From Escherichia phage SkaterBoy_Bas90: 64,000 nt of DNA. Each line of letters opens with the position of its first letter. The first letter of the stretch is position 1. The notes below the pieces were generated by a model. That model saw only the letters and a program-made list of their open reading frames with translations. It did not search any database and was not told the DNA's origin. The stretch is taken from the sequence record PQ850626.1; one strand, given 5' to 3'. The translations under genes and the position numbers were made by a program. Shown one piece after another: positions 39,207-41,316 of the stretch.

Positions 39207-41237
39207 TTAACCTCTATTCAATGAACATTTAGGAGAATTACAATAAACTTGATTCATAGAACCAAGCGTACAACTTTCAGCATCGCGCCACGGAATCTGC
39301 TTAAAACACTCTGAGCAGTATCCGAGGGTTGACCACATGGCTTTGGTGAAGTCAGTGCTTCGGTTTCCGTCGAAGCTGACAACAGTTTTGCGGAGAGCTG
39401 TTCGTGATTCAGGAAACACACCTGCTTTCTCAGCAGGTTCCTCCTTTTTTGGCTTAGTTGAGATTGCAAAAATACTGTTGCTACGTTTCTCAACATAAGC
39501 ATCAACAACATCCTCCAGAGTGATGCCTGTCTGTTTCGCTGAGGAAGGTAATACAGTCATACGACCGATCATATCTTCAGTTACACGTAAAGCGAATTCA
39601 GGACGACGGGCGTTTGTTGTATCTGTTGCTCTAATCCAGACATAACCATCTTTGATCGTAGCATTAGACACTTTCTTCTTTACTTCTACAGCGCAGACTT
39701 TACAGATATCTTCACCACGAAGACGACTAAGTTCATCATCGAACTCATTCTCTGTTTTAACTTCACCGCAGATTTCACAAACACCAATAGGAGTTTCCTC
39801 CTCTTCTTCCTCTTTAGGTTTAGTCAAACCTTCCAGACATTCAGGATGCCAATAGCACTGATATGCGAAGACTGCTTTAGGTGCATCCTTCCAATCAATG
39901 TGCTTATCACAACCACCACAATCACCATGAGAGTGCGCTTCCCAGAATTTACGAGTGATAGTAACGCCATTCTTGTTGACGAAACTATCATTCATATCAA
40001 AAGGGATATCATCATCGAAGTCAGCAGTAGTTGACTCAGGCTCCTTTTTCTCCAGAGATGGGTCAACAAAACGACCTGCTGTGATCACTAAACGAACCAT
40101 AGCATTGACTTCGGAGATGCAGGATACTGTCCCACGGTAAACAATTTTAGGGTCTTTCAGGGCATCCTGATAAGCCTTAATGTCTACGTTATGAACATCA
40201 CCTTCGATATACTCTTGAGATTTCTCATCGTAGATATAACCAATCATCTTACCACGAGAAGGAACAGCACCGGCAGTTGCATAAGGAACAAACTCATGCG
40301 GAGTGATTTCCACAGTCATATCGCGGCGAATATCAATGTTTCGATCGCTTGCGATTTTGTTTTGACTTACCACTGCGTTTCTTCGACGAACGTCTGCCGC
40401 TGTCACACCCGGCTTCGTGTCGTAAGGATTGCTTGTACTGCTTTTTGAGGAACTTTGATAGTTGCTTTGGCTGTAATTGTTCGAGTAGTAATTGCCCCAA
40501 CGATTGACTACCGTAAAAACCGGAAGCTCGTGGGCGACCTCTTCAACCAGTGTCATGCTGTTATTAGACATGTCAAAGATATACTCTGTACCAACTTTAC
40601 ACTCAAAATGCTCATCAATACGGTTCTTGTGAGACTTCGAACGCTTCAGAATCCACATCAGCATATCTTCTTCAGAAGCGCCAAACCAATCTCTGTTACA
40701 ACGTGCGAGATGGAAAGGACGCTCTTCGTTACGAATGATATGAAGGCGGTTATCAGAAGCATCATGCCAGATTAAGGTGAAAGCACCATCCAGCTTTTGA
40801 ATAGTCTCTGCTGCACCAATAGTGTTAATAGAGTGGCAGATGTTCTCACTATCTACCTCGAAGTTTTTACTGTCAGGTAACAGGTCTTGGTCCATCAAGG
40901 TTCCATTATGAACCAGAGTGATGTTACCATGTTGGAAAGGATGGGCGTTCTTGGCGTTAACTGCACCTTTCGTTGCATGACGGCTGTGACCAACAATCCA
41001 TGAAGGTGCTACAGTGTAAGCTGTTTCACCAGTGGTGTGCTTCTTGTACTCATCTTGTAGGATGAATGCGAAAGAAGGAAGAGCTTCTTTATAAGTGAAG
41101 ACTTCCTTAGTGCTTTTACGCTGACCGAAGATACCAGAGGAGTGTTGTCCTCGGAATACTCCAGCATAAAAGAGTTGGTTGAATACGTCTAAATCAGTGC
41201 TTGACAGATTACCGCCAGCTAATACGATGCCACAAAT
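39207..41237 (-). CDS. class II (Ntn-type) glutamine amidotransferase domain protein with a Cys-rich C-terminal region; proposed start at ATT 41237
   Basis: Track ORF ends at a TTG at 40898, but the frame stays open to 41240; the extension encodes (M)CGIVLAGG ... VGHSRHATKG ... NAHPF ... LVHNGTL, the GAT-II pattern with the nucleophile Cys directly after the ATT codon, which has an AGGTGG SD 8 nt upstream. Confidence 0.55.
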   Translation of the reverse strand: MCGIVLAGGNLSSTDLDVFNQLFYAGVFRGQHSSGIFGQRKSTKEVFTYKEALPSFAFILQDEYKKHTTGETAYTVAPSWIVGHSRHATKGAVNAKNAHPFQHGNITLVHNGTLMDQDLLPDSKNFEVDSENICHSINTIGAAETIQKLDGAFTLIWHDASDNRLHIIRNEERPFHLARCNRDWFGASEEDMLMWILKRSKSHKNRIDEHFECKVGTEYIFDMSNNSMTLVEEVAHELPVFTVVNRWGNYYSNNYSQSNYQSSSKSSTSNPYDTKPGVTAADVRRRNAVVSQNKIASDRNIDIRRDMTVEITPHEFVPYATAGAVPSRGKMIGYIYDEKSQEYIEGDVHNVDIKAYQDALKDPKIVYRGTVSCISEVNAMVRLVITAGRFVDPSLEKKEPESTTADFDDDIPFDMNDSFVNKNGVTITRKFWEAHSHGDCGGCDKHIDWKDAPKAVFAYQCYWHPECLEGLTKPKEEEEEETPIGVCEICGEVKTENEFDDELSRLRGEDICKVCAVEVKKKVSNATIKDGYVWIRATDTTNARRPEFALRVTEDMIGRMTVLPSSAKQTGITLEDVVDAYVEKRSNSIFAISTKPKKEEPAEKAGVFPESRTALRKTVVSFDGNRSTDFTKAMWSTLGYCSECFKQIPWRDAESCTLGSMNQVYCNSPKCSLNRG

Positions 41238-41316
41238 TTTCTAATCCACCTGAAGGGTAAACCCTTTCATCTAATTAACCTTTAAATTGTGCCCCTTTGT
41301 CAGAGGCACCCATTGA

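Follow-up and report, generated by a model that had tools for sequence, protein, structure and literature searches.

In bacteria, annotated AUU, AUC, AUA and CUG start codons make up 0.004-0.024% of all starts, and in Escherichia coli only infC and pcnB have experimentally confirmed non-canonical starts, both of them AUU (PMC5499595; bioRxiv 10.1101/063800). Initiation factor 3 (IF3) selectively represses AUU starts, and in infC the AUU or AUC start is what IF3 control acts on (PMC5499595). The efficiency of AUU and AUC ranges overall from a few percent to about 15% of that of AUG, with values of about 1-2% in one system and 6-8-fold below AUG in another, and reporters started with AUC and other non-AUG codons bear an N-terminal Met (bioRxiv 10.1101/063800; PMC3592434). 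Here we analyzed a gene on the minus strand of a 64,000-nucleotide (nt) stretch of Escherichia phage SkaterBoy_Bas90 (PQ850626.1; this whole stretch is referred to as the window), which represents a phiEco32-like coliphage (Kuravirus) and is 98% identical to several isolates. The gene encodes a protein with a class-II, N-terminal nucleophile (Ntn) glutamine amidotransferase (GAT-II) head, and comparison across phage homologues argues that it is very probably initiated at an AUU codon, with removal of the initiator Met exposing the catalytic Cys as residue 1 (Cys1). The coordinates of all features are collected in Table 1.

A sequence-only reading of the window had noted that the open reading frame (ORF) tracked from a TTG at 40898 remains open for 114 more codons up to a TAG at 41243..41241, that this extension contains no in-frame ATG, GTG or TTG, and that only AAA and ATT precede the Cys codon. 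All of this was confirmed by reading the frame on the minus strand. Between the TAG and the stop codon at 39207-39209 the frame comprises 677 codons, the first in-frame ATG, GTG or TTG being the TTG at 40898, and the sequence at the start reads ...CAGGTGGAT TAG AAA ATT TGT GGC ATC GTA..., with AAA at 41240..41238. The window contains 34 ORFs of 150 amino acids (aa) or more, in which the startless extension has a median length of 4 codons and the next largest spans 18, so that an extension of 114 codons is far beyond chance. The product started at the TTG lacks Cys1 and most of the GAT head. The Shine-Dalgarno (SD) sequence AGGTGG had also been placed correctly, 8 nt before the ATT.

The same reading had recognized the extension as an Ntn amidotransferase head with the TGT as its nucleophile codon, and both assignments hold. 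In Pfam the head matches GATase_6 at 55 bits (cut-off 27) and GATase_7 at 27.4 bits (cut-off 25). A phmmer search of the head against the PDB gave no match, while a family profile built from 10 homologues matched the glutaminase domains of GlmS, PurF and AsnB (GlmS 1xff, E=1.5e-11); these PDB matches were confined to the glutaminase head, and profile position 1, the window Cys, aligned with PurF Cys1 and GFAT Cys2 in the PDB chains. The window Cys also aligns with position 2 of the PHROG 4736 profile, which makes Met-Cys the family consensus. Ten sequences with identities as low as 35% all retain Cys1, R28, GHxRxATxG, NxHPF, VHNG (N110-G111) and DS (D128-S129), and judged by alignment R28, N110-G111 and D128-S129 presumably correspond to the GlmS catalytic residues. 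By its motifs and profile matches the head qualifies as a genuine GAT-II domain, and glutaminase activity with ammonia transfer is predicted for it. It shares with PurF, GlmS and AsnB the fold family of the head, the conserved Arg, Asn-Gly and Asp motifs and a Cys1 nucleophile exposed by Met removal. In contrast to these enzymes, the phage protein carries no SIS, phosphoribosyltransferase (PRTase) or synthetase domain, and its gene is flanked by genes for an amidoligase (Pfam Amidoligase_2) and an ATP-grasp enzyme.

Selection and conservation both extend over the disputed region. When the window was compared with KBNP1711, ECBP2 and SU7 (two other genera), the ratio of nonsynonymous to synonymous substitution rates (dN/dS) over 112 head codons was 0.07-0.11 at dS values of 1.3-2.5, and such strong purifying selection indicates that the head is translated and functional. 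A 70-nt query spanning leader and start retrieved 98 phage records (96 Escherichia/Shigella phages and 2 of Aeromonas phage BUCT695) at 92-100% identity. With leader and ATT present in 98 of 98 related records and the head under purifying selection, sequencing error and recent inactivation, which the sequence-only reading had offered as alternatives, are excluded. A block of 54 nt around the start is invariant across three genera, while the coding DNA that flanks it is only 55-85% identical in KBNP1711, ECBP2 and SU7; in these alignments no other stretch of the locus is as constrained as the leader.

The nucleophile has to occupy residue 1 and the codon that precedes Cys must therefore be the start, so that the family provides a test that is independent of gene callers. 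Among homologues on viral contigs, 78 have a match that begins at Cys1, and in these the codon was ATG (60), TTG (2), ATT (11) or ATC (3); the remaining 2 loci were cases of ATG-TGY displaced in the alignment, and other sense codons never occupied the position. At the loci with ATT or ATC (ATY, or AUY in the transcript) the frame is closed by a stop 2-19 codons upstream, and it offers no canonical start that could be used ahead of the ATY. Among cultured phages, O4 has ATC and KpnP_VR7901 has ATT, while LUZ24, KIT05, Lyrsu03 and Slicky01 have ATG. In L109, a phage contig in a bacterial assembly, the start region reads GAT TAG TAA ATT TGC, and this double stop directly before the ATT excludes stop-codon readthrough. 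Overall, 18 of 67 non-redundant phage heads use an ATY start and the rest ATG, TTG or GTG. ATY and canonical lineages are interspersed, several ATY heads being nearest to a head with a canonical start, and bootstrapped parsimony on the 67 heads yields roughly 10-13 switches between AUG and AUY, an approximate count since the underlying trees are crude ones made on p-distances by the unweighted pair group method with arithmetic mean (UPGMA). A scan of bacterial-assembly contigs added 9 loci, mostly phage contigs, and the survey thus covers phage homologues. Across homologous phages, then, the start position holds ATT in all 98 close records and ATG, TTG, GTG, ATT or ATC elsewhere. AUU initiation followed by Met removal to expose Cys1, the interpretation favored by the sequence-only reading, is supported by these comparisons and is the sole reading that fits all of them.

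The locus thus resembles the infC type of start in having no in-frame canonical start codon, a near-cognate codon that is conserved or interchanged, and an SD 7-8 nt upstream in nearly all cases. As in E. coli infC, AUU and AUC are interchangeable among orthologues and the start is SD-directed (PMC5499595, PMC3592434), and the phiEco32-like UAG AAA AUU has the same geometry of stop codon, 3 nt and AUU as the UAA GGU AUU of the thrS-infC junction (PMC3592434). By this comparison, conservation of a weak codon suggests that the weak codon itself is functional (PMC5499595, PMC3592434). Unlike infC, the phage gene does not encode a translation factor and an autoregulatory loop is not evident. A further difference is a covarying hairpin abutting the SD of the phage gene, which does not figure in the published account of the infC start (PMC5499595, PMC3592434). 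With E. coli pcnB the phage gene shares a weak AUU on an enzyme gene, which presumably limits its level, and a start codon that varies among taxa; the study that reports this start (bioRxiv 10.1101/063800) mentions no hairpin-SD module for pcnB, which is a single host gene as opposed to a recurrent pattern in a phage family.

The hairpin, together with an in-frame 9-codon mini-ORF and the annotation history given below, goes beyond what the sequence-only reading had reported. All ATY leaders have a small hairpin immediately 5' of the SD. In the window AAGGG (41266-41262) pairs with CCCUU (41257-41253) around the loop UUUA (41261-41258), and the stem is extended by G41268-C41252 with A41267 bulged. 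Across 16 lineages the module begins with a stem of 5-7 bp closed by a loop of 3-4 nt. The SD duplex follows at a distance of -2 to +1 nt, the SD being mostly GGAGGA, and then come a spacer of 7 nt (7-8 overall), AUY and UGY; 13 of the 16 fit cleanly. Upstream of the SD, ATY leaders form more stable folds than canonical ones (-6.4 versus -2.5 kcal/mol, p=2e-5), and their SDs are stronger (-8.2 versus -6.3 kcal/mol, p=0.003). A strict version of the module (hairpin at or below -5 kcal/mol, its end within -3 to +2 nt of the SD) was present in 12 of 15 distinct ATY leaders and in none of 45 with a canonical start (Fisher p=3e-10); shuffled sequences show it in 2.2% of cases. An independent scan of a viral collection for GGAGGAT-N6-ATT-TGY-GG gave 79 matches, 20 of which were GAT-II genes; these represent 13 distinct leaders and 8 new lineages, with the hairpin in 11 of the 13 and stem sequences that are unrelated.

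A covariance model built from three seeds and run over 316 kb recovered essentially only ATY leaders and no canonical-start GAT leader, and in the 64-kb window its sole match was the gene's own leader (41230-41273). In 21 distinct leaders, 94.6% of stem cells were paired, compared to 58.6% after shuffling and 19-54% in slid controls (the first set of leaders gave similar values), and compensatory double-sided changes numbered 35 cells against 9.1 expected (0 of 500 shuffles), affecting all six pairs. The stems differ in sequence throughout, so it is structure and position that are conserved. The recurrent, family-wide use of AUU/AUC and its coupling to a covarying hairpin-SD module appear to be new. 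An Rfam search of the leader matched no described RNA family (best score 16.7 bits, cut-off 44).

According to the mechanism that we propose, the 30S subunit would be positioned by the AGGUGG SD 8 nt upstream of the AUU (41237-41235), and the initiator fMet-tRNA would pair with AUU despite the mismatch at the third position. Deformylase and methionine aminopeptidase would then strip the fMet and expose Cys1; removal is expected since residue 2 is the small Cys, which permits it. The weak codon would set an expression level that is low, sensitive to IF3 proofreading, or both, as in infC, while the strong SD and the abutting hairpin may keep the 30S on the site until the non-canonical codon is accepted. 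The near-zero gap and the fixed spacer suggest a geometric role for the hairpin, for example stacking on the SD helix, and it could perhaps stack on the SD/anti-SD helix on the 30S platform; this is the weakest step, and both the hairpin's function and the dependence on IF3 are put forward from comparative data. More tentatively still, hairpin, SD, N7 and AUY might form a dedicated cis device that licenses or regulates non-canonical initiation, through coaxial stacking on the SD/anti-SD helix or interference with IF3 proofreading, and that was gained and lost about ten times along with the switch from AUG to AUY, a possibility to which we give limited credence.

Several observations weigh against AUU initiation or against the part assigned to the hairpin. 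The support consists of sequence comparison, and the searchable literature gave no protein or ribosome proof of the N-terminus. Proteomics of phage SU10 detected the protein with 9 peptides, but the search used a truncated 63.8-kDa model started at the TTG (PMC4281155). A UUG and a GUG lie out of frame 2 and 4 nt past A41237 and could compete with the AUU. The SDs of phiEco32 and BUCT695 (AGGUGG and AGGCGG) are weaker than the GGAGGA of other ATY lineages. The pair counts given above come from an alignment fitted to the covariance model and from lineages that are related and not phylogenetically independent. Finally, the predicted unpaired probability of SD and start did not differ between ATY and canonical leaders (0.45 versus 0.55, p=0.15).

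This accessibility modelling leaves a role of the hairpin as an insulator that unmasks the SD unsupported, which favors a different explanation of the hairpin, namely that it is an intercistronic mRNA processing or stability element, which would shield the message upstream or a processed 5' end, or a repressor operator and no initiation aid, with AUY and hairpin keeping or regulating GAT output. Upstream ORFs commonly have their stop codon 16-40 nt ahead of the start, either at the hairpin or shortly before it, and a protein bound to a hairpin abutting the SD would block the 30S. The translational operators of T4 gene 43 and E. coli thrS sit beside the SD and, like the module described here, have a small hairpin immediately 5' of it; in contrast, they are sequence-specific protein sites before an AUG, while here structure and position are conserved and tied to AUY. 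Stem and loop sequences that differ between lineages argue against a single common protein ligand, a stability element would need no gap of -2 to +1 nt to the SD, and the absence of the hairpin from 45 canonical leaders would remain unexplained. The hairpin is not followed by a U-tract and is thus no intrinsic terminator. On this evidence we regard an operator or processing role as possible but doubtful.

Termination and reinitiation at the mini-ORF would not replace SD-directed AUU initiation but complement it: ribosomes translating the mini-ORF would melt the hairpin, stop at the UAG (41243-41241) and restart 3 nt further on. The mini-ORF shares the frame of the GAT gene, is preceded by an AAGG at 8 nt and spans the ultraconserved block exactly. 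In phiEco32-like phages the hairpin lies within its 9 codons and the UAG 3 nt before the AUU, and its ATG and TAG are kept in BUCT695 (MKGLTLQAD*), which belongs to another family, has a head that is 52% identical and does not group as sister of the phiEco32 clade. In L109 the ATG of the mini-ORF is replaced by CTG, and a 73-codon ORF with a Pfam HTH_3 match in the same frame spans hairpin and SD to the same TAG, its C-terminal tail aligning with the mini-ORF. BUCT695 has a homologous HTH ORF of 43 codons, truncated 48 nt upstream. These alignments suggest that the mini-ORF is what remains of the 3' end of a gene once located upstream. The arrangement of stop, 3 nt and AUU is also that of the infC junction, at which a reporter study found about equal contributions of reinitiation and de novo initiation (PMC3592434).

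Against such coupling, the mini-ORF has no SD in BUCT695, and the feature shared by ATY lineages is the hairpin and not an upstream ORF. An upstream ORF that ends near the start was found in phiEco32-like phages, BUCT695, L109, L063 and L077, but is lacking in most other ATY lineages, as is an ORF ending in the spacer. ATY genes are no nearer to upstream stops than genes with canonical starts (median distance 34 versus 17 nt), and with no excess of proximity we rejected family-wide translational coupling. While reinitiation is unlikely overall, it is reasonable to consider termination-coupled initiation an auxiliary mechanism in the phiEco32-like sub-lineage and not a general one.

Readthrough of the UAG would produce MKGFTLQVD-X-KI-Cys, from which a 12-residue propeptide would have to be removed autocatalytically, as in Bacillus subtilis PurF, whose propeptide is autoprocessed to expose Cys1. 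The mini-ORF is in frame with GAT and similar in length to the PurF propeptide, but L109 has TAG TAA and lacks the mini-ORF ATG, other ATY lineages are startless with in-frame stops 2-19 codons upstream, and the constant ATT/ATC before Cys would be unexplained if it encoded a mere propeptide residue. The one tRNA of the window is tRNA-Arg(TCT) (50337-50412, minus strand), hence there is no suppressor. A PurF-type route relies on a continuous ORF with a canonical start upstream of Cys, while here an in-frame TAG lies 2 codons upstream, and we consider readthrough highly improbable. It is barely conceivable that the head is untranslated and that the TTG at 40898 or some other downstream codon is the true start, as automatic callers and many GenBank records annotate it, the upstream frame being a remnant or artefact, given the low dN/dS over the head codons at saturated dS, the catalytic motifs intact in distant homologues and the leader kept throughout the 98 records.

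The AUU start of the window gene is already known as a GenBank annotation. In the phiEco32 GenBank/RefSeq entries (EU330206, NC_010324), the leader of which is identical, the phi32_83 coding sequence (CDS) has begun at this ATT since 2008; this is an annotation choice only, and most later records went back to truncated starts. In the searchable literature, which does not include subscription journals, we found no experimental support for or discussion of an ATT start in phiEco32 or phage amidotransferases. Of the 98 records, 60 were sampled evenly; 9 of these have a CDS that reaches the start, 46 have none there and 5 are without annotation. Truncated annotations without Cys1 were found for Paul, KBNP1711, ECBP2/SU7, BUCT695, O4 and KpnP_VR7901. 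Records of phiEco32-like phages, Zobellviridae and Grimontviridae mostly start the gene 9 to 114 codons late, omitting the catalytic Cys, and many of them name it a GlmS-type aminotransferase. In practice, the protein provided by most deposited genomes lacks its nucleophile, an error inherited by protein databases that draw on standard gene callers.

Use of AUU or AUC in about a quarter of the lineages of a phage enzyme family, with the start fixed by Cys1, amounts to a natural experiment on weak start codons, and the covarying hairpin beside a strong SD is a concrete, testable cis-element. If a dedicated device were indeed at work, it could serve to predict non-AUG starts and would be a compact, portable element for translational control.

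Table 1. Features of the GAT-II locus in the window (coordinates on the 64,000-nt stretch)
Feature	Position	Strand	Details
Full-length gene, phi32_83 homologue	39207..41237	minus	ATT to stop, 676 codons + stop
GAT-II (Ntn) glutamine amidotransferase head	40590..41234	minus	about residues 1-215
TTG taken as start by ORF callers and several GenBank records	40896..40898	minus	563-aa product
Ultraconserved 54-nt block	41229..41282	minus	100% identical in Kuravirus, Nieuwekanaalvirus, Suseptimavirus
Catalytic N-terminal Cys codon TGT	41232..41234	minus	Cys1 after predicted Met removal
Proposed initiation codon ATT (AUU)	41235..41237	minus	kept in 98 records; ATT/ATC there in other lineages
Spacer ATTAGAAA	41238..41245	minus	holds in-frame TAG 41241-41243, 3 nt before ATT
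In-frame mini-ORF MKGFTLQVD*	41241..41270	minus	ATG AAA GGG TTT ACC CTT CAG GTG GAT TAG
Shine-Dalgarno AGGTGG	41246..41251	minus	8 nt before ATT; 16S-tail duplex -5.9 kcal/mol
Hairpin abutting SD	41252..41268	minus	about -5.2 to -5.3 kcal/mol
8-bp terminator-like hairpin GUGCCUCU-GACAA-AGGGGCAC	41289..41309	minus	just past amidoligase stop
Upstream gene, amidoligase (Pfam Amidoligase_2), phi32_84 homologue	41317..42420	minus	
N-terminal tryptic peptide of full-length model			CGIVLAGGNLSSTDLDVFNQLFYAGVFR

Further observations concern the leader and its surroundings. On the minus strand the TAA that ends the amidoligase gene (41319-41317) is followed by the GUGCCUCU-GACAA-AGGGGCAC hairpin, AAUUUAAAGGUUAAUUAG and the AUG of the mini-ORF. 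The hairpin downstream of the amidoligase gene shows compensatory changes in ECBP2 and SU7 (GCGCUCU...AGGGCGC) and, lacking a U-tract, is no classic intrinsic terminator; an A/U-rich stretch (41288-41271) lies between it and the leader. Neither an intrinsic terminator nor a sigma-70 promoter was detected at the leader on the minus strand, and there was no terminator-like site in 40900-41600. A repeated promoter or 5' untranslated region cassette was rejected with the leader present once in the window. Promoters of the phiEco32 sigma factor (tAATGTAtA) are located elsewhere, upstream of genes 6, 13, 26, 40, 58 and 68 (PMC8948821). An alternative helix that sequesters the SD, formed by GGUUUACC (41263-41256) and GGUGGAUU (41250-41243) at -6.1 kcal/mol, is mutually exclusive with the conserved hairpin and is part of the minimum free energy (MFE) fold of 121 nt; a switch based on it was dropped, as by inspection the substitutions in BUCT695 appear to break the helix.

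At the start itself, two out-of-frame canonical codons overlap the AUU on the minus strand, UUG (41235-41233) and GUG (41233-41231), which would yield peptides of 8 and 4 codons, respectively. The spacer after GGAGGA very often opens with a stop triplet, UAG or UAA and rarely UGA (L063, L071, L077, L086, L093, L110, O4, VR7901, L119-L191). In most lineages this stop lies outside the GAT frame (offset -7); the phiEco32/L020 type has it in frame (offset -6), and a long upstream ORF ending at it was found only in L063 and L077. ORFs with HTH_3 (XRE-type) matches lie directly upstream of the GAT gene in L109 (1-222) and in BUCT695 (L009, about 224-355), the one in BUCT695 being unannotated, and they are possible regulators of the cluster. 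A complete hairpin-SD-ATC-TGT module followed by 7 GAT codons (CGLVGVG) is present in L078 (IMGVR_UViG_3300008050_000183, 946-988), 255 nt upstream of the TTG-started GAT gene of this contig, and runs into an unrelated ORF of about 70 codons; from its sequence it looks like a duplicated or displaced 5' end, the relic of an ATC start that was replaced by TTG.

With regard to the remainder of the protein, the C-terminal region of about 440 aa matched no Pfam family at E values up to 0.01 (residues 240-677) and contains no SIS domain, which leaves the product name 'L-glutamine-D-fructose-6-phosphate aminotransferase' unsupported. This region (39207-40520, minus strand) is Cys-rich with zinc-ribbon-like motifs (HSHGDCGGCDKH...C..H.EC, CEICG...CKVC and CSEC...C..PKC), and the unrelated homologue on L020 also ends with a similar Cys-rich motif.

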